A stretch of 64,000 bases of DNA from an uncultured delta proteobacterium (lineage in GTDB: Bacteria; Myxococcota; UBA727; VGSZ01): assembly GCA_963775425.1 (NCBI GenBank), contig CAVZJB010000016.1, positions 160,001-224,000 on the forward strand. Reading direction: 5' to 3'. Positions within the stretch are counted from its first letter, which is position 1; every line of letters starts with the position of its first letter. Below the pieces are notes generated by a model. That model was not told where the DNA came from. It worked only from the letters and a program-made list of their open reading frames with translations, and did no database searches. A program made the translations under genes and the position numbers. Of this stretch, positions 3,768-39,835 are shown piece after piece.

Positions 3768-4166
3768 TCAGCCTTCGCCCTGGCGCTTCTGCTCGCGCTC
3801 GAGCTCTTCCTTGTACGTGACGCTGTAGCGCGTCCACGGACGGAGCTTGAGGCGGGCGTAGCCGATGGGCTCCTCGGTGCCTTCACACAGGCCGTAGGTG
3901 CCGTTCTTCACCTTGTCGAGCGCGCGCTCGACCTCCCGCAGCAGCTTGGCGTCGCGGTCCATCAGGCGGGTCTCGAGCGCGACCTCGGCGTCTTCGCTCG
4001 CCTGGTCGGCCTCGTCGCCGGTGCCCGCGCGTTGCTCGCCCTGCTGGCTGCCCGACCGGCGGTTCTTGAGCGCGGCCATGAGCTCTTCGCGCTTGGAGTG
4101 GAGCGCCGCGATGAGCTCCTTTTGCTGCGCGGGGGTCAGATCTCTTTCACGGGGACGGGCCGCCAT
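3768..4166 (-). CDS. dksA: DksA/TraR family transcription factor, one-Cys variant
   Basis: DEADQA coiled-coil tip (DxxDxA); ERALDKVKNGTYGLC..PIGYARL..RPW; GGAGG RBS upstream of ATG 4166. Confidence 0.88.
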   Translation of the reverse strand: MAARPRERDLTPAQQKELIAALHSKREELMAALKNRRSGSQQGEQRAGTGDEADQASEDAEVALETRLMDRDAKLLREVERALDKVKNGTYGLCEGTEEPIGYARLKLRPWTRYSVTYKEELEREQKRQGEG

Positions 4167-4194
4167 TGCGTGCCTCCATCTTGAGGGGCGCAGC

Positions 4195-4223
4195 AATATA
4201 GGGACGACCCGGGTCTACCGCAA
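4195..4223 (-). promoter_or_regulatory. Putative sigma70 promoter of dksA
   Basis: TTGCGG-N17-TATATT on the minus strand followed by a GC-rich discriminator (GCTGCGC). Confidence 0.55.
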
Positions 4224-4226
4224 GGA

Positions 4227-6158
4227 TCAGTCGATGTCTTCGAGGTAGGTGTAGCCGGCGAGGCCCTCTTCGTAGCGCCGCATGAAGGCGGCGGACTGCT
4301 CGAAGCTCATCCGGCCGGCCCGGACCGCCCGCTCGGCGGCCTGGCGCACCCGGCGCACGAGCTCTGCGCGGTCGTACTCGACGTACTCGAGGACCTCGCC
4401 GACGCGGTCGCCCTCGACGACGTGCTCGAGCTGGTAGCCGCGCCCGCCTTCGGGCAGGGCCACGTGCACCACGTTGGTGTCGCCGAAGAGGTTGTGGAGG
4501 TCCCCGAGGGTCTCCTGGTACGCCCCGACGAGGAACGCGCCGAGGAAATAGGGCTCGCCGTTCATGGCGTGCAAGCGAAGCGTGGGCTTGACGTCGCGCA
4601 GGTCGATGAAGTTGTCGACCTTGCCGTCGGAGTCGCAGGTGAGGTCGGCGAGGATGGCCTCGCGGTGCGGCTCCTCGTCGAGCCGGTGCAGCGGCACGAT
4701 GGGGAAGAGCTGGTCCACGGCCCATGAGTCCGGCAGCGACTGGAACACGGAGAAGTTGCAGTAGAAGGTGTCCGAGAGGGTCTTCTTCAGGCCCGCGAGG
4801 TCGTCGGGGACGTAGTCGAGCGCCTCCGTGGTGCGCTGGACCTTCTCGCAGACCGCCCAGAAGAGGTCCTCGACGCGCGCGCGGGTGCGCAGGTCGATGA
4901 CGCCGGCGGAGAAGAGCGTCTCGGCCTCGTCCTTGATGGTGACGGCGTCGTTGTAGCTCTCCTGGAACGTCTTGTTGTTGACGCCCTGGTACGCCTCCCA
5001 CATCGCCTCGATGGTGGCGTGCTCTCCCGCCGCGGGCTTCATGTCCGGCTGCACCTTGGGGTTGGCCATCTCGTTGGTGCCGAGGACGTTGAACACGAGC
5101 ACCGCGTGGTGCGCGACGAGCGCGCGGCCGGCCTCGGTGACGATGTTGGGGTGGGGGACCGAGGCCTGGTCGCAGGCGTCCTGGATCGCGGAGACGATGT
5201 CGGCCGCGTACTCCTGGTTCGAGTAGTTCCTCGACGAGTGGAAGTTGGTCTTGCTGCCGTCGTAGTCGACGGCGAGGCCGCCACCGACGTCGACGTAGTT
5301 CAGGTTCTCGGCGCCCATCTTCCGGAGGTCCTGGTAGACGCGCGAGGCCTCGCGGATGGCGTCCTTCACGGAGCGGATGGCGGTGATCTGCGAGCCGATG
5401 TGGAAGTGCAACAGCTCGAGGCAGTCGAGCATGTCGCGCTCGCGCAGCACGTCCACGGCGCGGCAGATCTCCGACGCCGACAGCCCGAACTTGCTGCGCT
5501 CGCCGCTCGACTCCTGCCACTTGCCGGCGCCCTTCGACGACAGGCGCGCGCGGATACCGATGTGCGGCCGCACGCCGAGGAGCCTGCCGAGCTGGAGCAC
5601 GAGCTCCAGCTCCGCGAAGCGGTCGAGCACGAGGAACGGCTTGAGGCCTATCTGTTGTGCCTGCAGCGCGGTCTCGACGTACTCGCTGTCCTTGTAGCCG
5701 TTGCAGATCAGGAGGCGCTCGTCGCCGTCGAGGAGCGACATGGCGACGAGGAGCTCGGCCTTGCTGCCCGCCTCGAGGCCGAGGTTGTACTTCTTGCCGG
5801 CGCGGACGAGCTCCTCGACGACGTGGCGCTGTTGGTTGACCTTGATCGGCATCACGCCGCGGTAGCTGCCCTGATAGCCGTATTCCTGAATGCGCGCGTT
5901 GAAGGCGCCGGTGAGGTCCGCGACGCGGCTCTCGAGGATGTCGTTGAAGCGCAGCAGGATCGGGGCATTGATCCCCCGCTTGCAGAGGTCGTCGACGAGG
6001 TCCTTGAGATCGATCTCGTCGCCACCGCCGTTCGGCTCGCCCCGCGGGCGGACCGTCAGGTGCCCGCGCTCGTTGACGCCGAAGTACGGGCTGCCCCAGG
6101 CGGGGATGTGGTACAGCTCGGCGCTGTCTTGCACGGTCCACCGTCAATCCATCGACAT
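4227..6158 (-). CDS. speA: Biosynthetic arginine decarboxylase; in-frame TGA at codon 5 (6146-6144), uninterrupted ORF from GTG 6134
   Basis: PIKVNQ PLP-lysine motif, LEAGSKAEL, HFHIGSQI, DVGGGL, DLTCDSDG, GAYQETLGDLHNLFG; AAGGAG RBS 8 nt before ATG 6158. Confidence 0.95.
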
Positions 6159-6251
6159 CTTGCGCACTCCTTCGCCGACGCTACGTCACACACTCACGCC
6201 GCGAACGCAAACCGTCATGCGCTAAGCTTCTTGTTGCCGGAGGAACCTCGC

Positions 6252-8009
6252 GTGCTCTCGCTGCCGTTGCTCTTTGCGCTCGCGCTCCCCCCCGACCCCT
6301 CCGCCGGCGCCGCCGTCGTCGAGGACCCACCTGTCTTCCCGTTGAAGGACATCAAGGCCGGCCTGCACGGCACGGGCTACACCGTCTTCGAGTCACGCAA
6401 GGGACTCGAGTCGTTCGACGTCGTCATCCTCGGGGTGATGCAGGGCTACCTCGGCCCCGGCGAGGACCTCATCATCGCGCGCCTCGAGGGCAAGCAGATC
6501 GAGCGCACCGGTGTCATCGCCGGCATGTCGGGCAGCCCCGTGTACATCGACGGCAAGCTCGTCGGCGCCGTCGGCTACCGCTTCGGCCAGTTCACCAAGG
6601 ATCCCATCGCGGGCATCACGCCCATCGAGCGCATGATGACGGCGGCGACGCCGTCGCCGCATCGCTCACCGGCGTCGCCGCGGGTGGCCGGTGCGATGAC
6701 GGCGTGGGGGCAGGGCGAGCCCATCGCCACCCCCATCAGCATCTCGGGGCTGTCGCCCGCCATCCTCGAAGCGTTCCGCCCCGAGCTGCAAAAGCGCGGC
6801 TTCGGGCCGGTGGTCGCCGCCGGCGGCGCCGGCTCCGCCCGCGATCACAAGCCGATGCGCCTGTACGCGGGCGGCCCCATCGCCGGCAACCTCATCGAGG
6901 GCGACATCAACATGGGCGCCATCGGCACGGTGACCTGGGTGAAGGGCGACCGCTTCCTCGCCTTCGGCCACCCCTTCCTCGGCACCGGCGAGACGTCGAT
7001 GCCCGTGGCCGACGCCGAGATCATCACCACCGTGGCGTCCGACGCCGGGAGCTGGAAGATGGGGCAGCCCACGGCGCCCGTCGGCATGCTCTCCGACAAT
7101 CGCCTGCACGCCATCGCCGGCACCATGGGGGAGACGCCGCCGCTCGTTCCGCTCACCGTCAAGATGGAGCTCGCCAGCCCTCGGCGCGCCGCCGACGCCA
7201 AGAAGATGCTGCGCTACCAGGTCTTTCAGCACGAGACCGACACGCCGCTGTTCGTCGCCATCGCGGTCGCCAACACGCTCGCCAACCGCGTCGCCGCGGA
7301 GAAGTCCGGCGGCACCGTCGACGTCACCCTCGACGCCAAGCTCGACACCGGAGACACGCTCCCCTACACGTTCCGCGCCGCCGACGAGGGGCAGGGCTTC
7401 GAGATGCCGGTGGCGTTCGGCGTGCTCGGCCTGCTGAACGCCGCCATCGACCAGGACTTCGTGAAGGCCAAGCTCGCCTCCGTCGACGTCACGGTGAAGA
7501 GCCGCTCCGTCGTCGACAAGGCCCGCGTGGTCTCCGTCGACGCCACCCGTCCGCTGGTCGCCGGCAAGCCAGGCGAGGTGCGGGTGCGGCTGCAGACGTG
7601 GCAGGGCCCCATCGTCGAAAAGCGCGTCGCGGTCCGCGTGCCCGCGGGCGTCTCGGCCGGCGCCTACCAGCTCGTCGCCGCCGGCCAGCAGGACGCCGCG
7701 CACGTCGAGAAAGAGGGCGGGCTCGTGCCGCTGTCCACCAACTTCAAGGGCTACCTGCAAAACCTCCTCGCGGCGCCGCCGCCGGGGTCGCTGTCGGTCT
7801 ACCTCGTCGCCGACGAGCCCTCTTTGCGCATCGAGGGGAAGCCCCTGCCGAACCTGCCGGCGTCGCTGCAGGGCCTGCTCGCCGACGGCGGCGGCCTCTC
7901 CGGCGGCACCGTCGAGGCCAAGGCCGCGCGCATCTCGCGCATCGTCGAGGACGGCGTCATCGTCGGCCAGAGCACCGCCAAGGTCCACGTCCGCGACGAC
8001 GACGAGTAA
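6252..8009 (+). CDS. Secreted SpoIVB peptidase S55-domain protein
   Basis: Signal peptide; GVIAGMSGSPVYIDGKLVGAV; GTVT..FLAFGHPF; GGAGG before GTG 6252. Confidence 0.85.
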   Translation: MLSLPLLFALALPPDPSAGAAVVEDPPVFPLKDIKAGLHGTGYTVFESRKGLESFDVVILGVMQGYLGPGEDLIIARLEGKQIERTGVIAGMSGSPVYIDGKLVGAVGYRFGQFTKDPIAGITPIERMMTAATPSPHRSPASPRVAGAMTAWGQGEPIATPISISGLSPAILEAFRPELQKRGFGPVVAAGGAGSARDHKPMRLYAGGPIAGNLIEGDINMGAIGTVTWVKGDRFLAFGHPFLGTGETSMPVADAEIITTVASDAGSWKMGQPTAPVGMLSDNRLHAIAGTMGETPPLVPLTVKMELASPRRAADAKKMLRYQVFQHETDTPLFVAIAVANTLANRVAAEKSGGTVDVTLDAKLDTGDTLPYTFRAADEGQGFEMPVAFGVLGLLNAAIDQDFVKAKLASVDVTVKSRSVVDKARVVSVDATRPLVAGKPGEVRVRLQTWQGPIVEKRVAVRVPAGVSAGAYQLVAAGQQDAAHVEKEGGLVPLSTNFKGYLQNLLAAPPPGSLSVYLVADEPSLRIEGKPLPNLPASLQGLLADGGGLSGGTVEAKAARISRIVEDGVIVGQSTAKVHVRDDDE

Positions 8010-8049: not shown

Positions 8050-10164
8050 GTGAAGCGAATCGCAGTCGTCCTCGTCGCCCTGGCCGCGGCCATGCCGGCG
8101 GCGGCCAGCCAGAGCCAGGTGCACGTCGTCGAGGGGTTGAAGGACCTGATGGACGGGGACCTCGACGGGGCCCGCATCTCCCCCGCCGGCGTCGTCACGG
8201 TCGCGCCGCAGACGTCGGTGATCGCCGAGGGGCTGACGGGCCCCGTGCTCGCCGTCGCCCGCGGCGGCGACGGGCAGCTCTACGCCGCCAGCGCCAGCCC
8301 CGGCCGCGTGTGGCGCATCGTCGACGGCAAGGCCCCCGAGTCCGTCTTCGAGACCGAAAAGCCGCTCGTCACCGCGCTCCTCCCCGTCGGCAAGGACAAG
8401 CTCGTGGCGCTCACCGCCCCCGACGGCGGCGCAGAGGTCATCGACCTCAAGACCAAGAAGCACGACACCGTGCTCGCCAAGGACGCCAAGATGCTCCTCG
8501 CGGGCGCGGTCCTCGACGGCACCGTCTACGCCGTCGGCGGCGGCGAAGAGGGCGTGTTGATGAAGCTCGCCCCGGGCGCCAAGGCCTTCGAGGTGCTCGC
8601 GCGCACCAAGGAGGCCCAGCTGCGCTCGGTGGCCGTCGGCCGCGTCGGGGGCGCGCTCAAGATCGTCGTGGGCGGCGGCGAAGAGGGCGTGGTCTACGAG
8701 GTCACCGCCGGCAAGGTGCGCGCGCTCGTCGACGCGGCGCCGTCGGAGATCACGTCGCTCGCGCTCGGCAGGGACGGCACCATCTACGCCGCCGCCGTCG
8801 ACGGCGAGGGCAAGCTCAGCAAGGGCGCCGTCAGCAAGGTCAAGGACGACGACGACAAGAAGGACAAGAAGGATCAGAAGGCGCGCAAGGTGAAGAGCGC
8901 CGAGATCTGGCGCATCGATCCGCACGGCCGCGCCACGGTGCTGTGGCAATCCAAGGACCACGGCGCGTACGCGCTGGCCCTCTATGATGGCGAGCTCGTC
9001 GCCGGCACCGGCCCCGAAGGGCGCATCTACGAGCTCGACCCGGCGGGAGGCCGCCCCGCGGGCATCCTCACGCGCATCAAGGATCACGACGAGGTCACCG
9101 CGCTCCTCGTCGACAAGACCGGCCTCGTGTTCGGCACCGCCCACGCCGCGGCGGTGGCGCGCGCGGCGTCGTCGAAGGCCGCGCGCGGGACGTACCTGAG
9201 CGGCGCGCTCGACGCGTCGGCGCTCGCCCGCTACGGCTCCGTCACCGCGCGCAGCCGCGGCTCCGTCGAGCTCTCGGTGCGCACCGGCAACACCAAGGAG
9301 CCCGACGACACGTGGTCGTCGTGGGCGTCGTCGCCGTCGGCGGCGCCGGCGGGCCAGTACGCCCAGGTGCGCGCGCAGCTCTCGGGCGCGGCGTCGCTCG
9401 AGGGCCTGACGCTGAGCTATCTCGTCGACAACCGCGCCCCCGACATCGACCGCGTCGAGGTGCTCGCGCCCGGCTGGAAGGTGATCGCGAGCCAACACGA
9501 CGCGTCCGAGACGCGCTCGGTGACGTTCAACGAGAAGCCCTTCGCCAAGTTCCTCGACCGTCGCGGCGGACAGAACCCCACGCTCGAGGACCGGCCCTTC
9601 GGCAAGCAGAGCTTCGACAGCGGCTACCGCACCGTCTACGCCTACGTCGAAGACGCCGACAAGGACGCGCTGCGCTACCGCTTCTTCCTCGGCAAGGTCG
9701 ACGCCGCCGGCGGCGTGAAGAAGTGGACGCCGCTCAAGGAGTGGTCCGACGAGCCGTTCGTGAGCTTCGAGGCGAGCCGCCTCGCCGACGGCGACTACAA
9801 GGTCAAGGTCGAGGTCGACGACCTCCCCACCAACGGCCCCGCCCGCAAGCTCACCGACGAGGACGTGAGCCCCGCGTTCGTGGTGAGCCACGCGCCGCCG
9901 CGCCTGTCGGGCGCGCAGGCCCGCCGGGACAAGAACGGCATCCACGTGAAGCTCGACGTCGCCGGCGCCCTGCCGCTCACCGTGGTCCGTTGCTCCGCCG
10001 GCGGCGACGACTGGGTGCCGCTCAATCCCAAGGACGGCATCATCGACGGGCCGCGCGAGAGCTTCGACGTCGAGCTCGACGCAGGCGGCAAGCTCGACGC
10101 GGTGTCCTGCGAGGTCTACGACGAGGCCTTGAACTTCAACCGCATCGACATCCCCGTGAGTTGA
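8050..10164 (+). CDS. Secreted beta-propeller (WD40/NHL-like) protein with C-terminal Ig/Fn3-like region
   Basis: Signal peptide; repeated beta-blade patterns (DGQLYAA, DGTVYAV, DGTIYAA); DGDYKVKVEVDD. Confidence 0.7.
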   Translation: MKRIAVVLVALAAAMPAAASQSQVHVVEGLKDLMDGDLDGARISPAGVVTVAPQTSVIAEGLTGPVLAVARGGDGQLYAASASPGRVWRIVDGKAPESVFETEKPLVTALLPVGKDKLVALTAPDGGAEVIDLKTKKHDTVLAKDAKMLLAGAVLDGTVYAVGGGEEGVLMKLAPGAKAFEVLARTKEAQLRSVAVGRVGGALKIVVGGGEEGVVYEVTAGKVRALVDAAPSEITSLALGRDGTIYAAAVDGEGKLSKGAVSKVKDDDDKKDKKDQKARKVKSAEIWRIDPHGRATVLWQSKDHGAYALALYDGELVAGTGPEGRIYELDPAGGRPAGILTRIKDHDEVTALLVDKTGLVFGTAHAAAVARAASSKAARGTYLSGALDASALARYGSVTARSRGSVELSVRTGNTKEPDDTWSSWASSPSAAPAGQYAQVRAQLSGAASLEGLTLSYLVDNRAPDIDRVEVLAPGWKVIASQHDASETRSVTFNEKPFAKFLDRRGGQNPTLEDRPFGKQSFDSGYRTVYAYVEDADKDALRYRFFLGKVDAAGGVKKWTPLKEWSDEPFVSFEASRLADGDYKVKVEVDDLPTNGPARKLTDEDVSPAFVVSHAPPRLSGAQARRDKNGIHVKLDVAGALPLTVVRCSAGGDDWVPLNPKDGIIDGPRESFDVELDAGGKLDAVSCEVYDEALNFNRIDIPVS

Positions 10165-10309
10165 TTGTGAGCGCGCTTCGCGCGCGGCTCCCTCTCGCCG
10201 CGTTCGAATCACGGGGCTTGACGTCGTCGACCACTCCGCGCGCCCGGGAGAGGCAGGGCGCCTCCCTGGAGCGGGTTGCGCGTCCGGCCTCGGGCCGCCA
10301 TCGGGGGGC

Positions 10310-11389
10310 ATGCCGTGGTCGACACCCGCTCGCCGCCCCCCCGTCAGCGCGCTCGCCGTCGTCGCTCTCGCCGCCCTCGCCGTCGCGGGATGCCAGAAGC
10401 GGCCCGCCGACTGCGAGCTCGCCCCCGCGCTCGCCACGCTCGATAAGGCCGCCACCGGGGGCCTCGCGAAGAAGGCCGTGGCGGAGGCGGACGCCCTCGC
10501 CAACAGGGCCCTCGACGACGCCAACGCGCAGGACAGCCGCCCCGGCTTCCTGCGCCGCTACGACGGCGCCCTGTGCCTGAAGGCGAAGGCCAAGCTCGCC
10601 GACGCCCAGCGCGCCGTGGAGCGGGCGGACAAGGCCAAGGCTCCCGTCGAAGCGTCCTTCAAGGAGGCGCGGGCGTCGCTCGACGACGCGCTCAAGCACG
10701 TCGAGGCCGGCATCGAGTGGCTCGACGCGATGCCGCCGCCGCCGGGCGCGGGCCCCAAGGACGCCGCCGGCCCGCGCGACCTCGTAGGCGAGTCGCGCGC
10801 CCTGCAGCAGGCGGTGAAGAACGACGAGGATCGCATCGAGCGCGCCGCCCACGACGCCGAGCTTGCCGGGTGGGACGTGCCGCCGGAGATCGCGATGGCG
10901 CTGTCGCGGGACGCCGACAGGCGCCTGCCGGTGGCCAAGGACATCGAGAAAAACGCCAAGAAGGCCGCGCTCGATCGCTGCCACGAGAAGCGCACCGACG
11001 TCACCGGGATCCGTCTCGCGGAGCCGTTCGTGGTGATGACCGCGCCGAACGCCACCCTCGTGTTCAGGAAGGACACCGACGGCAAGTGCCACCCGGTGCA
11101 CGTCGAAAAGCGCGCCCTCGACGTCGGCACGCTGCGCGTGTGGAAGATCGTGCGCCCGCGCGTGGAGCCGGTGCTCGTCGGCTGGACGCCGAAGCGCGCG
11201 TGGTTCGTGACCGTCGACGGCGGCTTCGCGTCGTTCGCGCACACCGCGCGCACGCCGTGCAAAGCCGGCGGCACCTGCGACGCTCCGAAGCTCGGCGAGT
11301 CCGTCGAAGCCACGTGCACCTGCGGCGACGGCAGCCGCTTCACCGCCCGCTACGCGTGGGACGGCCACGCCCCGTTTCCCGAACCGTAA
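10310..11389 (+). CDS. Hypothetical lipoprotein
   Basis: Lipobox LAVAGC; helical N-half, Cys-containing beta C-half; genome-typical codon usage. Confidence 0.6.
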   Translation: MPWSTPARRPPVSALAVVALAALAVAGCQKRPADCELAPALATLDKAATGGLAKKAVAEADALANRALDDANAQDSRPGFLRRYDGALCLKAKAKLADAQRAVERADKAKAPVEASFKEARASLDDALKHVEAGIEWLDAMPPPPGAGPKDAAGPRDLVGESRALQQAVKNDEDRIERAAHDAELAGWDVPPEIAMALSRDADRRLPVAKDIEKNAKKAALDRCHEKRTDVTGIRLAEPFVVMTAPNATLVFRKDTDGKCHPVHVEKRALDVGTLRVWKIVRPRVEPVLVGWTPKRAWFVTVDGGFASFAHTARTPCKAGGTCDAPKLGESVEATCTCGDGSRFTARYAWDGHAPFPEP

Positions 11390-11471
11390 GGCTCGCCCGC
11401 GCCGCGCGAAACGCCGGCGCCCGCACGACGACGGTGGTTGCGCCGCGCGGCGTGGGCCGCGATCAGGACGC

Positions 11472-11852
11472 ATGCCGTGGTCGAAGCTCGCCCGCCGCCT
11501 GCGCGCCCGCGAACAGAAGCTCGCCGCCCGGTCCTCGACGGTGGACCGGCGCGTCGTCGCCCGCGCGCGGTTTTCGATGTGGCTCGTCGACGTCGCCCGC
11601 GTCGCCGTCGTGCTCGCCGTGGTCCTCGCGTGTGTGCGCGCCGGCGGCTTGTCCCCCATCGTCTCCGTCGGCGCAGGGCTCGCCGCGTACGCGATCGCCA
11701 GCCTCCCTCGCATGGCCGCCTGCGACGCCATCCTCGGCCGCGCGCTCGCCACAATCTCCCCGCGCACCGCCGCGTCCCTCGCGTCCGCCGGCGCTTCGCC
11801 CATCCCCGGCCCCGTCGATCGCGACGCCGTCGACTTCGACGACGCGGCCTGA
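11472..11852 (+). CDS. Small hypothetical membrane protein
   Basis: Two hydrophobic segments; shares upstream motif and MPWS start with the preceding gene. Confidence 0.5.
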   Translation: MPWSKLARRLRAREQKLAARSSTVDRRVVARARFSMWLVDVARVAVVLAVVLACVRAGGLSPIVSVGAGLAAYAIASLPRMAACDAILGRALATISPRTAASLASAGASPIPGPVDRDAVDFDDAA

Positions 11853-11905: not shown

Positions 11906-12985
11906 TCAGCGCACGCCGGGCGCGTGGGGCAGGTCGGGGCGGGCGGCGCCTTTGCTCAACAGCGCAAAGCCGATCATCTTGTAGAGCAGCCGGGCGCCGA
12001 CGTTGCCGTCCCAGGACGAAGCGAGCGCGTCGTCGGACAGGGCGGGGTCGGGCGCGACCTCGACGAGGTCCATGCCCACGATGCGCTTGCCCGCGGCGAC
12101 GACGGCGTCGAGGAGCGCGACGATCTCGTCGAAGGACAGGCCGCCCGGCACGGGCGTCCCCGTGTGCGGGCACAGGCCCGGGTCGAGCCCGTCGATGTCG
12201 AAGCTCAGGTAGATGTTCTCGGGGAGCTCGTTGGCGATGGCGCGGCACACCGTGGCCCAGTCGCCGCGCTGCCGCGCAGCCCGCAGGTGCGCGTCGAAGT
12301 ATGTGGTCACGCGCCCCGGCTGCGCCTTGATGAAGTCGAGCTCGCTCTCGCAGAAGTCGCGGATCCCGACCTGGACGAGCCGCACGAGCGGCATGCGGTC
12401 CATCACGTTTCGCATGATGGACGCGTGCGACCACGTGAAGCCCTCGTACGCCGGCCGCAGGTCGGCGTGCGCGTCGAGATGCAACACGCCGAGGGGGCGC
12501 TCCCCGACGTGCGCGGCGCAGGCGGCGATGGCCCCGTAGGGCACCGAATGATCGCCGCCGACGACGACGGGGATCTTGTTGTCGCGCAGCAGCGCGCTCG
12601 CCCGCTCCGTCAGCTCCTTGTTGATCGCGGCGCCCGCCTCGTCGACGAGCGCGCGATCCGCCGCCGGCGCTTCGCGCCCCGCCACGACGGCCTCCATGCA
12701 CCGCTGCGCCGCCGCCCGCGCCGCGGCGTTCTTGTCCCGCGCGGCCGCCACCGGCGCGGCGAGCGCGATGCCCGCCTCGTATGGGCGTCCGACGTCCGCG
12801 TCGAGCAGGTCCACCTGGCGGCTGGCGGCGAGCAGCGCCGCGGGCCCCCGCGCCGTCCCCGCGCTGTATGAGACCGTGGCCTCGAAGGGCACGGGCACAA
12901 TCACCACGAGCGCGTCTGCGATCGGTGTCACAAGCCCGTACATTTCCGAATCGGGCGACGAGGGGGCGTTTACGTCGAGCGTCAT
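11906..12985 (-). CDS. speB: Agmatinase (ureohydrolase family)
   Basis: GGDHS, DAHADL, SHAS, SFDIDGLDP, TGTPVPGG; speA nearby. Confidence 0.88.
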   Translation of the reverse strand: MTLDVNAPSSPDSEMYGLVTPIADALVVIVPVPFEATVSYSAGTARGPAALLAASRQVDLLDADVGRPYEAGIALAAPVAAARDKNAAARAAAQRCMEAVVAGREAPAADRALVDEAGAAINKELTERASALLRDNKIPVVVGGDHSVPYGAIAACAAHVGERPLGVLHLDAHADLRPAYEGFTWSHASIMRNVMDRMPLVRLVQVGIRDFCESELDFIKAQPGRVTTYFDAHLRAARQRGDWATVCRAIANELPENIYLSFDIDGLDPGLCPHTGTPVPGGLSFDEIVALLDAVVAAGKRIVGMDLVEVAPDPALSDDALASSWDGNVGARLLYKMIGFALLSKGAARPDLPHAPGVR

Positions 12986-13076
12986 CAGATCCCCCCATGA
13001 CACGTCGTTCGCGCCATGGAAACGTTCACCCCGTCATGACGGTCCGCACGCCCATCCTCGCTGCGCTGGTCGGCCC

Positions 13077-13853
13077 ATGAGCCCCGAGGCCTCGGAGCAC
13101 CGAACCTCCTTCTGGGAGAACGACGACGCGTGGCAGGTGACCTGGCCCGCGGCCATCGCGTTCGCGATGCTGTTTCACGGCGTCGCGTTCGTGATGAGCG
13201 AGAAGGCGCCCCAGCAGGTGCACAACGTCCCGATCACCATGGCCATCGCCATGCCGCCGCCGCCGCCCCCGCCGCCGCCGCCGCCGGAGCCGCCGCCGCC
13301 CCCGCCGCCCAAGAAGAAGCCGCCGCCGCCGCCCAAGGTGAAGGAGCTGCCGCCGCCGCCCAACGAGACGCCGCCGCCGGACCCGACGCCCGTCGAAGAG
13401 GTGAAGCCGGTGACGGGCGTGACCAAGGAGTCGGTGGTCGCCGCCAACAACGGCGGACCGCAGGTGCGCGTGGGCAACACCACCTACGGCGACCCCGACA
13501 AGGAGAAGCTCACGCCGCCGCCCCAGGTGCAAGAGCCGGTGCTGCAGCCCTTCGACCTGGCCGGCTACCGACAGAGCGTCTACCAGACCATGAACCACGA
13601 GAAGCGTTACCCCCGGCGCGCGCGCGTGCTCGGCCTCGAGGGCAAGTGCCTGGTCACGCTCATCATCAACCGCGACGGCTCGCTCGCGCGCCCGCCGCGC
13701 CTGTTGAAGGGCACCGGCCACGACGCGCTCGACGCAGAGTGTCTGCGCATGGCCAAGGCGCACGCCTTTCCGCCCATCGTCGGCGACGTCGAGACGCCCT
13801 TCAGGATGACGCAGGCCATTGCCTTCAGCCTGCTCGACGGCGACCGCTACTGA
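13077..13853 (+). CDS. TonB family energy transducer
   Basis: N-terminal TM with His, poly-Pro linker, YPRRARVLGLEG..GHDALD TonB_C motif. Confidence 0.85.
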   Translation: MSPEASEHRTSFWENDDAWQVTWPAAIAFAMLFHGVAFVMSEKAPQQVHNVPITMAIAMPPPPPPPPPPPEPPPPPPPKKKPPPPPKVKELPPPPNETPPPDPTPVEEVKPVTGVTKESVVAANNGGPQVRVGNTTYGDPDKEKLTPPPQVQEPVLQPFDLAGYRQSVYQTMNHEKRYPRRARVLGLEGKCLVTLIINRDGSLARPPRLLKGTGHDALDAECLRMAKAHAFPPIVGDVETPFRMTQAIAFSLLDGDRY

Positions 13854-13901
13854 CGCGGCGCGCTCGCTGCGCCGCCTGCACCGGCCGGCTACACTCACGC
13901 G

Positions 13902-14462
13902 GTGTGCCGGGCGGCCCTCCTCCTCGTCGTTTTTGCGGTCGCCGCATGCGCGTGCGCGGAAGACGTCAACCTGCGCGTCGAGGCGCCGCACACGCAGGTG
14001 CTCCTGAACGGCACCGACATCGGCGCCGTCCCCGACGAGGGCGCCAACGTCGCCATCCGCCCCGCGATGACCCCGCTGCGCTACGAGGTGCGCGACGGCG
14101 GCAGGAGCGTCGTCGGCGAGATCCCGCGGACGGAGCCCGTGTGGTGGCTCGTCGCCGCGGGCGTCGCGGGCGCCGCGTGCGGCGCGCCCGCCCTCGCCGC
14201 CGCCGGCTTCTGCATCGCCAACCCCGCCGTCCTCGGGGCGCCGCTCGTCTTCGCGCTCACCGGCGACGTGTCGGCGCTGACGGCGTCGTGCGTGGCGCCG
14301 TCGTGGTTGACGCTGCCGCTTTCGACGTCGTGCGGCGCGGTGGGCCTCGCGCCGCTCGGCCTCGCGTTCATGGCGGAGAACGTGCCGCCGAAGGTCGTCA
14401 TCCAGGCGGCCGCGCTCAGCTCGCCCCAGGCGGCGAGCAGCCGCGGGGGCGTGAGGTACTGA
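13902..14462 (+). CDS. Hypothetical exported/membrane protein
   Basis: Signal/lipobox-like N-terminus, short PEGA-like beta segment, hydrophobic C-half; TGATG overlap with next gene. Confidence 0.55.
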   Translation: MCRAALLLVVFAVAACACAEDVNLRVEAPHTQVLLNGTDIGAVPDEGANVAIRPAMTPLRYEVRDGGRSVVGEIPRTEPVWWLVAAGVAGAACGAPALAAAGFCIANPAVLGAPLVFALTGDVSALTASCVAPSWLTLPLSTSCGAVGLAPLGLAFMAENVPPKVVIQAAALSSPQAASSRGGVRY

Positions 14463-15727
14463 TGCGCGCGCCCGCCCTCGCCGTCGTCGCCGTCCTCGTC
14501 CCGGTCCTCGCCGTCGGGTGGGTGGGGTGCGCCCCGTCGGGGCCCGTGGTCGTCGAGGCGCTCGTCGCGGACCCGTCCGCCGACGACGGCGTCCGCCTCG
14601 ACGACGTCGAGCTCACCACCCTGCTCGACATCAACACGGGGAGGGGCTCGCTGTTCGACGCCCGCGGCGGCCTGCAGATGGCGGGGCTCACCGTGAGCGA
14701 CTCCGCCAAGGCCGACGACAGCTTCACCGTCATGCGCGACAAGACGCGCGGCGACGGCGGCAGCTCCATGGCGCCGAACATGAGCTTCGACGGCACGCGC
14801 TACGTCGCCGAGGACCTCGACACGCTCACGTACTTCACGGCGTGGCACGCGCTCGAGCAGGCGTGGCTGTTCGCGCGCGACGACCTGAAGGACACGTCGC
14901 CGGCGGTGAAGGAGCACTCGTTGCTCGGCATCAACTCGTCGGTGGTGGCCGCGGACCTCCTGCCGCTGCCCATCCTCACCGCCGACAACGCCGCCTACGC
15001 CGCTCCCCTCGACGCCTGGCTGACGCTGCGGGCGGTGACGCAGGACGGGGTGCCGTTCGCCATGGCGCTGCCCGTCATCGCGCACGAGTTCCACCACCGC
15101 GTCTTTCACAGGAACGTGTTCGCGAGCGACGCCGCCTTCGAGGTCTGGAAGAGCCGCGTGCTCGACCAGACGCAGCCGCAGCGCACGGCCACGCGCATCC
15201 TCCAGGGCGTCGACGAGGGCCTCGCCAATCTCTACTCGCTCGCCGCCACCGGCGACCCCGACGGCTTGAAGCGCACCTTCACCCTCGCCGGCGGCCGCTT
15301 CGTCGCCGAGGGCGAGCGCCGCGCGCTCGACGGCGAATTCGCCGACGCCGCGACGTACGACGGGCTGAGAACGAACACCCTCGACGCCAAGTTCCTGCGC
15401 GCGTGCAACTCCGCGGGCAGCGACGACCTCTTCGCCGAGGACGGCTTCAACTTCTACTGCCTCGGCACCGTGCTCGCGCGAGCCCTGTGGGACGGCAGCG
15501 ACAACGACATCGCCACCCTGCGCGCCGACGTGCTCCCGGCCGTGGACCGCGCGCTCCCCCGCGTGGGCGACACGCTCGCCGCGGGGACGCTCTTCGACGT
15601 CGACGTGCTCCTCGCCCCGCTGGTCGACGAGCTGCCGCCCGGCGCTCGCCGCGACGCGGTCTGCGCCCGCCTCGAGGAGCGCTTCACGAGCGTCCTCGAC
15701 GCCGGCAAGGTCCCCGGGTGCCTCTGA
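14462..15727 (+). CDS. Lipoprotein, putative gluzincin-type zinc metallopeptidase
   Basis: Lipobox WVGC; DNAAY; AHEFHH; downstream DEGLAN third-ligand motif. Confidence 0.7.
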   Translation: MRAPALAVVAVLVPVLAVGWVGCAPSGPVVVEALVADPSADDGVRLDDVELTTLLDINTGRGSLFDARGGLQMAGLTVSDSAKADDSFTVMRDKTRGDGGSSMAPNMSFDGTRYVAEDLDTLTYFTAWHALEQAWLFARDDLKDTSPAVKEHSLLGINSSVVAADLLPLPILTADNAAYAAPLDAWLTLRAVTQDGVPFAMALPVIAHEFHHRVFHRNVFASDAAFEVWKSRVLDQTQPQRTATRILQGVDEGLANLYSLAATGDPDGLKRTFTLAGGRFVAEGERRALDGEFADAATYDGLRTNTLDAKFLRACNSAGSDDLFAEDGFNFYCLGTVLARALWDGSDNDIATLRADVLPAVDRALPRVGDTLAAGTLFDVDVLLAPLVDELPPGARRDAVCARLEERFTSVLDAGKVPGCL

Positions 15728-36779: not shown

Positions 36780-38575
<1,796 letters not shown>

Positions 38576-38576
<1 letters not shown>

Positions 38577-39835
38577 TGAAGAAGCTGCTCCACAAATGGC
38601 GGCGGATGCTGACCCCGGGGCACGGCATCGCCACGCTCGTCTTGCTCGTGATCGTGTACGAGCTGTGGGGCAAGGTCTTCGAGGAGGGCGGCACGGGGAG
38701 CAACGTCGTGCTCGGGCTGCTCGTCGCGGTCGCCGTCATCTACCTGGGCGCCACCAACCTCGGCCCGTCCGTCGACGACGCCATCCTGCCCAAGAAGAAC
38801 CGGGCGCTGCGCAAGCGCAAGCGCACCGCGTGGGAGCTCGCCGACGACGTCGAGCGCGCCATCAAGGAAGACGGCAAGAAGCGCGCAGCCAAGCGGAAGC
38901 TCACCGCGGAGATCGCGGAGAAGCTCGCGGCCGCCGTCGGCGAATTGCGCACCGCCGCCGACGGCGACAGCGTCGAACGGCTCGACAAGGCCACCACCGC
39001 CGTCGACAAGCTCGTCGAAGGCTCCTTCGGCACCGAGAAGGGCTCCGCGGCCGTCTTCGCGCAGGTGCGCAGCCTCGGGATCGCGTTCGCCATCGCGGTG
39101 GCCCTGCGCCTGTTCCTCGTGGCGCCGTTCCAGATCCCCTCGGGCTCGATGATCCCCACGCTCCTCATCGGCGACCACCTCTTCGTGTTCCGCGCCATGT
39201 ACGGGCTGCAGTCGCCGGTCGGCAAGACGCCGACGTACTGGGCGCGCTGGGCCATGCCCAAGCCGGGCGACGTCATCGTGTTCGAGGCGCCGCCGTGGGT
39301 GGGGATGAACGCGGGCGACGACTGGATCAAGCGCGTCATCGCGCTGCCCGGCCAGCGCGTGAAGCGCGTGGACACCACGGTCTACGTCGACGACAAGCCC
39401 TACACGCAGCTCGGTGACGGCAAGATGATGCGCTACATGGACTTCCGGGAGCTCGGGCCGAGCCACGGCACATGGGAGCAGCGCACGGCCACCTACCACC
39501 AGGAGGACGCGGCCGGCGTCATCCACGACACCTTCACAGACATGCCGCCGACGACGGGGAGCTGGCCGTCGCCGGGCGAGCCGCTCCCCAACCAGGAGGG
39601 GCTCACGTGCACCGACAGCGAGTGCACCGTGAAGGACGGCTTCGTGTTCGTCATGGGCGACAACCGCGACAACTCGGCCGACGGGCGCCGCTGGGGCGCC
39701 GTCCCCGTCGACAACATCAAGGGCAAGGCCCTGTTCATCTGGGTCAGCGTCGACGGCTCCGAGGAGAGCGTGCACCTCGGCAAGTTCACCCTGCCGCGCT
39801 TCCGCTGGGATCGCCTGTTCCGCTGGATCCACTGA
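38576..39835 (+). CDS. lepB: Signal peptidase I with extended N-terminal region
   Basis: IPSGSMIPTL, IKRVIALPG, MGDNRDNSADGR; TGATG coupling to lepA. Confidence 0.95.

Follow-up and report, generated by a model that had tools for sequence, protein, structure and literature searches.

An in-frame TGA at codon 5 of speA in an uncultured delta proteobacterium: a possible lineage-specific nonsense substitution with restart at a downstream GTG

Introduction

The restart mutants of lacI and of phage T4 rIIB are the classical examples of translational restart after an early nonsense mutation. Among genes of polyamine metabolism, short-frame control is represented by the speFL arrest-peptide leader of enterobacteria and by antizyme +1 frameshifting, both of which rely on elements that relatives share and that contain sequences dedicated to sensing. 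UGA is in addition naturally leaky in Escherichia coli, where it can be read by tRNA-Trp in a context-dependent manner, and work in the same organism has described UGA followed by C as a poor terminator. Here we analyse a locus that touches on all of these systems: speA, the gene for biosynthetic arginine decarboxylase, in a 64,000-nucleotide (nt) stretch of DNA from an uncultured delta proteobacterium (assembly GCA_963775425.1, contig CAVZJB010000016.1, positions 160,001 to 224,000), referred to below as the window, in which an in-frame TGA occupies the fifth codon of the gene, shortly after a strong ribosome-binding site.

The initial annotation of this locus had interpreted the TGA either as a site of regulated readthrough or as the end of a four-codon upstream open reading frame (uORF) acting as a switch for polyamine synthesis, and had counted a nonsense mutation or a base-call error as equally possible. 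Comparison with relatives, with the rest of the source genome and with public sequence collections leads us to favour, tentatively, a nonsense substitution particular to this lineage, with residual SpeA made by restart at the GTG at position 6134.

Results

An in-frame TGA separates most of speA from its ribosome-binding site

The minus strand of the window reads AAGGAG-N8-ATG TCG ATG GAT TGA CGG TGG ACC GTG, letter for letter as initially annotated, and continues after the GTG (6134-6132) with CAA GAC AGC GCC GAG CTG TAC, in frame with full-length speA. The features on which the analysis turns, all on the minus strand, are the following.

6167..6172, minus strand: Shine-Dalgarno (SD) sequence AAGGAG, with an 8-nt spacer (6166-6159) before ATG 6158
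6156..6158, minus strand: ancestral speA start ATG, aligned in 9/9 same-family genomes and 4 further loci
6144..6158, minus strand: remnant four-codon frame M-S-M-D-stop, corresponding to ancestral speA codons 1-5; relatives read M-[STA]-[LIM]-[DE]-R
6144..6146, minus strand: in-frame TGA at ancestral codon 5; CGT or CGC (Arg) in relatives
6138..6140, minus strand: TGG, the invariant N-terminal Trp codon, after the stop but ahead of the sole downstream start, and outside any translation under genetic code table 11
6132..6134, minus strand: GTG, ancestral Val-9 codon and only available start or restart, 9 nt after the TGA
4227..6134, minus strand: speA open reading frame (ORF) under table 11, 635 amino acids, GTG start, stop at 4227-4229

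The SD sequence serves ATG 6158, and the 16S rRNA of the source genome has the 3' end ...GGATCACCTCCTTTCT. A second ATG (6152-6150, minus strand) lies inside the remnant frame, and no in-frame ATG, GTG or TTG occurs between the TGA and GTG 6134.

The identity of the gene is clear from profile scores as well as from the letters. The protein reached 876.9 bits against NF003763 (cut-off 369) and 773.2 bits against TIGR01273 (cut-off 624.1), with residues 2-635 matching profile positions 1-624; position 1 of the TIGR01273 profile is the Trp whose codon lies upstream of GTG 6134. The window's own protein (P0001) carries the Pfam domains PF02784 (127 bits at C16:165112-165858), PF17810 and PF17944, which form the set of the fold-type III pyridoxal phosphate decarboxylases, and its structure matches included 3n2o (E = 2.3e-157) and 3nzq (E = 5.3e-157). 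Three statements of the initial annotation are thereby borne out: that the gene is speA, in a frame continuous with ATG 6158; that the strong SD serves this ATG; and that a GTG start drops the Trp, the codon of which (6140-6138) precedes the GTG. Accordingly, the window's speA, as translated under table 11, has no intact frame running from the family start through the Trp.

All relatives carry a sense codon at the position of the TGA

We searched for speA in 41 genomes (the source genome and 40 relatives) and found it in 33 of them, including 10/10 other genomes of the same family; in another family of the same order (f6), 7 of the 21 genomes had no speA match. From the 30 loci returned, 5' ends were taken for 27, leaving out two loci with no N-terminus (L026, L028) and one distant paralogue (L030). 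The aligned Trp was present in all 26 relatives among these 5' ends, and in none of the 26 did a stop occur between the likely start and the Trp. In the same-family genomes (9/9), a GGAGG or GAGG SD sequence and an ATG stand at the window's exact positions, and codon 5 reads CGT (five genomes) or CGC (four).

A degenerate DNA pattern in which codon 5 was left free was then run on public genome and metagenome collections. It matched 10 loci in the former and 4 in the latter, with codon 5 being CGT or CGC in 14/14. Ten of these loci repeat known ones by codon string (L044, for instance, repeats L035), which leaves 4 new loci and a total of 13 distinct loci from relatives that share the SD and ATG; none of the 13 has a stop or a uORF at the codon 5 site, and all have Arg there.

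Protein comparisons gave a consistent picture. No same-species relative was retrieved in the protein search, the window's SpeA forming a singleton cluster with a next-best match at 85% identity. The 26 closest complete protein calls begin M-x-x-[DE]-R-R-W (closest clusters at 76-85% identity), and the N-terminal Trp is found in 117 of the best 120 homologues (116 by pattern match, plus P0075 added by eye), the three exceptions being the window's own protein and two 5'-partial calls that begin with V and were apparently truncated where their contigs end. The invariant columns of a 65-sequence alignment start with this Trp. At the DNA level, five family members show conservation with a sharp onset at ATG 6158 and none upstream of it.

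Because relatives share the ATG, the sense codon 5 and the onset of conservation, ATG 6158 is, on these alignments, the ancestral start, and the supposed uORF is simply codons 1-4 of speA. Likewise, GTG 6134 did not evolve as a start, since relatives carry the Val codons GTG, GTA or GTT at this position. The TGA differs from the CGY (CGT or CGC) of the relatives at two positions, so that a substitution and a sequence error alike need a rare intermediate or a rare true codon, such as CGA; among the Arg codons of the source genome, CGA accounts for 3.0% and AGA for 0.6%.

These results bear directly on regulated readthrough or a uORF switch, the headline of the initial annotation, which had suggested aligning the speA 5' ends of relatives for a conserved in-frame stop and had named uniformly sense codons with no uORF as the outcome that would speak against it. 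This is the outcome we obtained (13/13 loci), and as a conserved device the regulated reading is, at the level of sequence, already refuted. The fallback of a nonsense mutation or a base-call error had been rightly included.

TGA is an ordinary terminator in the source genome

TGA functions as the normal stop of this organism: of the source genome's 4254 long ORFs whose GC pattern is of the coding type, 3339 (78%) end with it. TGA followed by C, which had been put forward as a weak stop context supporting readthrough, proved to be the single commonest stop context (1240/4254 ORF ends) and is not specific to this site; a literature search on leakage at UGA-C in bacteria produced no directly usable source. 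ARAGORN, run on the source genome (60 tRNA genes and one transfer-messenger RNA (tmRNA) gene), called no UCA anticodon and no tRNA-Sec. The features of a selenoprotein or of a reassigned code, namely a UCA tRNA, Cys homologues and, across the 106 orthologues compared, other in-frame UGAs, were all lacking. As a side observation, the 61 ARAGORN calls include three tRNA-Arg(TCG), five tRNA-Met(CAT) and one odd 'tRNA-???(cc)', and the tmRNA tag is ANDNVELALAA.

The hairpin over the stop is weak and shared with sense-codon relatives

The initial annotation had drawn attention to a hairpin that covers both the UGA and the GTG:

6129..6147, minus strand: weak bulged hairpin TTGACGG-TGGA-CCGTGCAA, -4.6 kcal/mol as a 19-mer

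Such a hairpin can indeed form over both codons. It is, however, weak, and it is equalled or surpassed in relatives that have a sense codon: the local 24-nt window gave -5.3 kcal/mol here and the stronger value of -6.2 kcal/mol in the sense-codon relatives L002-L004. The hairpin was absent from the minimum-energy fold of the 101-nt context, which itself folded no better than its shuffles (z = -0.63; 42/200 shuffles fold as well). An Rfam scan of 5900-6600 at E <= 1 returned no match, and a scan of 5900-6500 for promoter and terminator consensus sequences found none. Judged from these comparisons, the hairpin is a side effect of the conservation of the R-W-T-V codons.

The rest of speA is intact and apparently provides the only entry into polyamine synthesis

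Beyond the TGA, speA is otherwise intact. Its remaining 635 codons contain no internal stop and are 77-81% identical to the same-family orthologues, and the ratio of nonsynonymous to synonymous substitution rates (dN/dS) against relatives is 0.23-0.38, compared with 0.24 and 0.37 for intact inter-genus pairs. The only other PF02784 gene in the source genome is lysA, and the alternative decarboxylase families PF01276 and PF01862 were unmatched in this genome, which is 94.55% complete. From these family searches, speA seems to be the only recognisable polyamine-synthesis entry in the assembled genome. Two further genes of the window are relevant to its setting.

11906..13003, minus strand: agmatinase-like ureohydrolase gene, intact (PF00491 193.7 bits, no stops; TIGR01230 169.2 bits, just below the 174.3 cut-off)
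3768..4196, minus strand: dksA-like zinc-finger gene, directly downstream of speA (TIGR02420 81.7 bits, below the 115.5 cut-off)

The agmatinase-like gene, about 6 kb from speA and on the same strand, likely encodes the next enzyme after SpeA. The order speA-dksA also occurs in the same-family genome G006 (g6_80, g6_81). Because the frame is intact, dN/dS is normal, speA is apparently the only polyamine entry and the agmatinase-like gene is intact, it is unlikely, on this evidence, that speA is a long-dead gene.

Other genes were noted in passing. A second gene of the Arginase family is present elsewhere in the source genome (C16:1149819-1150700). The divergent neighbour of speA (6290-8006, plus strand) is a long ORF of about 570 amino acids as cut, with no NCBIfam match at E <= 0.001, and the long minus-strand ORFs 10139-11803, 13029-13991 and 14084-15109 had no match either and may be wrong-frame shadows in this DNA of 72% GC.

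The contig that carries speA is not error-prone

Since the TGA is read from a metagenome-type assembly of 18 contigs, we compared the ORFs of 400 kb of the same-family genome G006 with contig C16 only, by tblastn-fast. An initial set of 118 best alignments included 9 with stops; a stricter filter on GC content by codon position left 106 orthologue pairs, covering 42,337 aligned residues and including six stop-containing alignments, among which only speA codon 5 lies inside conserved coding sequence. Of the other five stops, three precede the conserved start Met (g6_263, g6_81, g6_38), a fourth falls among the final C-terminal residues (g6_203), and the fifth belongs to an extension that runs out of frame across the 3' end of lepA (g6_63). 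Contig C16 is not error-prone, and a real substitution is therefore favoured.

Two side observations belong to this comparison. The window contains an ordinary lepA-lepB (signal peptidase I) pair (36780-39835, plus strand), in which the frame of lepB, extended upstream, runs into the 3' end of lepA and creates a false 'internal stop'. The G006 ORF g6_182, which failed the codon-position GC filter, aligns to C16:269099-270302 in two frames (-1, -3) at 48-57% identity; this split may reflect a frameshift, sequence divergence in the region or an ORF called in the wrong frame.

Public reads were also consulted. The read index listed 8 runs, none of them recorded as RNA, with a best word share of 0.29. 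In the soil-metagenome run X1, two low-depth contig pieces are identical to the window (5758-5908 and 5984-6134), and the same or a very close strain may be present in that soil sample. Among the public contig pieces listed, two related ones, X3 record 24 and X4 record 32, cover 6069/6070-6159 and differ from the window by 6 letters each.

Discussion

A nonsense substitution with restart at GTG 6134

We tentatively favour a lineage-specific nonsense substitution at codon 5 of speA, with residual SpeA produced when translation restarts at GTG 6134. Provided that the base call is correct, as we infer from the cleanness of the contig, codon 5 would, most simply, have changed in this lineage from CGY through CGA to TGA. 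Ribosomes would still load at the ancestral SD and ATG 6158, read four codons and terminate at the UGA, after which some of them would restart at GUG 6134, 9 nt further on, and produce a SpeA that lacks its first 8 residues, including the invariant Trp. A small amount of full-length SpeA might also arise through natural leakage at the UGA. Restart is our preferred and the most economical route to a protein, and it would represent an accident of mutation, not conserved control. The spacing is that expected of a restart site, where a stop and an in-frame restart codon lie within a few tens of nt, and section 19 of PMC5972666 describes post-termination bacterial ribosomes that re-initiate at nearby starts, with a reported reach of more than 40 nt. 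The shortened enzyme would presumably still work: the solved homologues 3nzq and 3n2o align only from query residue 9-11 onward, and the GTG-start product would therefore keep the whole structurally documented core.

Several observations weigh against this reading. The only SD-like sequence before GTG 6134 is GGTGGA, which has one mismatch to GGAGG and ends 3 nt upstream (a calculated anti-SD duplex of -7.4 kcal/mol showed irregular pairing and was not relied upon), and efficient re-initiation is stated to depend on an SD (PMC5972666, section 19). The two changes that separate TGA from CGY call for a CGA intermediate that was not observed and is itself a rare codon. The Trp that a GTG start would lose is nearly universal among the best 120 homologues, and the shortened SpeA may be impaired by its loss; in an AlphaFold2 model of the relative P0004 (mean pLDDT, the predicted local distance difference test score, 83.1), the Trp is placed just before helix 9-15, beside this confidently predicted helix, the first 10-residue block having a mean pLDDT of 72, and the model does not decide whether the Trp is required. 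Finally, among the public contig pieces listed, none from the identical-sequence run X1 covers 6144-6146.

Alternative explanations

The main rival is a consensus or base-call error that hides a true sense codon (for example CGA, Arg) and a normal start at ATG 6158. We regard it as rather unlikely, yet as a serious contender, given that the assembly is of metagenome type and incomplete, that the SpeA protein is a singleton cluster on one contig with no independent assembly showing the TGA, that the identical public pieces, among those listed, stop at 6134, short of the site, and that loss of the invariant Trp is unexpected in a gene that is apparently the only polyamine entry and is kept by all family relatives. 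It must be set against the absence of any other stop within coding sequence across the orthologues compared on the same contig, and against there being just two alignments split between frames, each involving an ORF rejected by the codon-position GC filter. Moreover, a single error would produce TGA only from the rare CGA or AGA or from a non-Arg codon, and starting from the relatives' CGY two errors within one codon would be needed. Should the nonsense mutation be real, speA could instead have become a pseudogene very recently and give rise to no useful enzyme, as the stop at codon 5, the lack of a proper SD at the only downstream start, the missing Trp of its product and the lack of a speA match in some genomes of the same order, such as the seven of family f6, would allow. 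This appears improbable, because no second lesion is found in the 635 codons and dN/dS resembles that of intact orthologues, three family searches turned up no other arginine or ornithine decarboxylase, the agmatinase-like partner gene is undamaged, and speA is kept in every other genome of its family that was searched.

The regulatory interpretations fare considerably worse. Programmed UGA readthrough, or a four-codon uORF that opens the hairpin for polyamine-responsive re-initiation, could point to the strong SD that serves the short frame, to the distance of only 9 nt between stop and restart codon, to the small hairpin that can span both, and to a speA that is otherwise intact and apparently needed. 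We nonetheless consider it very improbable, in view of the Arg codon in all 13 distinct relatives' loci, a hairpin that follows from the conserved R-W-T-V codons, a stop context that is the genome's most frequent one, and a GTG that is an inherited Val codon and no new start. There is an equally slim chance that, with the TGA real and fixed, speA codons 1-4 now act as a newborn mini-ORF, a device private to this lineage that would turn down, or conditionally tune, its only arginine decarboxylase through restart at GUG 6134 or leakage at the UGA. Hardly any weight falls on the remaining explanation, in which the UGA is decoded as an amino acid by selenocysteine insertion, a suppressor tRNA or an altered code: its sole point of support is a frame that stays open, with conserved sequence, before and after the TGA, and it is opposed by the tRNA complement, by the use of TGA to terminate most long coding ORFs, by the lack of any other TGA within coding sequence in the 106 orthologues, and by the relatives' codon 5, which specifies Arg and not Cys.

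Implications for annotation

The finding is an ordinary one, and its import beyond annotation is small. If the base call is right, the only recognisable arginine decarboxylase gene of this genome has lost its start region; speA should then be annotated as a GTG-start gene without the invariant Trp, or as a possible pseudogene, and any metabolic reconstruction of how this lineage makes polyamines should note this caveat on speA. More generally, an in-frame stop beside a strong ribosome-binding site should count as evidence of recoding only where relatives have the stop too.

Comparison with known systems

With the biosynthetic arginine decarboxylase family SpeA (TIGR01273/NF003763; PDB 3nzq, 3n2o, 3nzp), the locus shares a full-length match above both cut-offs; it differs from the family in that its ancestral start is severed by the stop at codon 5 and its table-11 product lacks the N-terminal Trp. 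The resemblance to UGA leakage via tRNA-Trp in E. coli lies in the C that follows the UGA, whereas here UGA-C is the most used natural terminator and marks nothing special. As in the speFL arrest-peptide leader and antizyme +1 frameshifting, a gene of the polyamine pathway is found together with a very short upstream frame, but in this case that frame consists of the severed first codons of speA and is absent from the 13 relatives' loci. The hallmarks of a recoding site, an in-frame stop conserved in relatives and a site-specific stimulatory downstream structure, are both missing, as is the separate conserved short upstream ORF of a leader peptide, relatives reading straight through. Because conservation of the stop or of a uORF was tested and not found, the locus does not, on this comparison, belong to any programmed recoding or leader-peptide class. 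A close parallel is restart after early nonsense mutations, as in lacI and phage T4 rIIB. In contrast to classical restarts and bacterial termination-reinitiation, the putative restart codon here has no good SD; like them, the locus combines a stop a few codons into the gene with an in-frame GUG within about 10 nt, from which an N-terminally shortened protein could be made.

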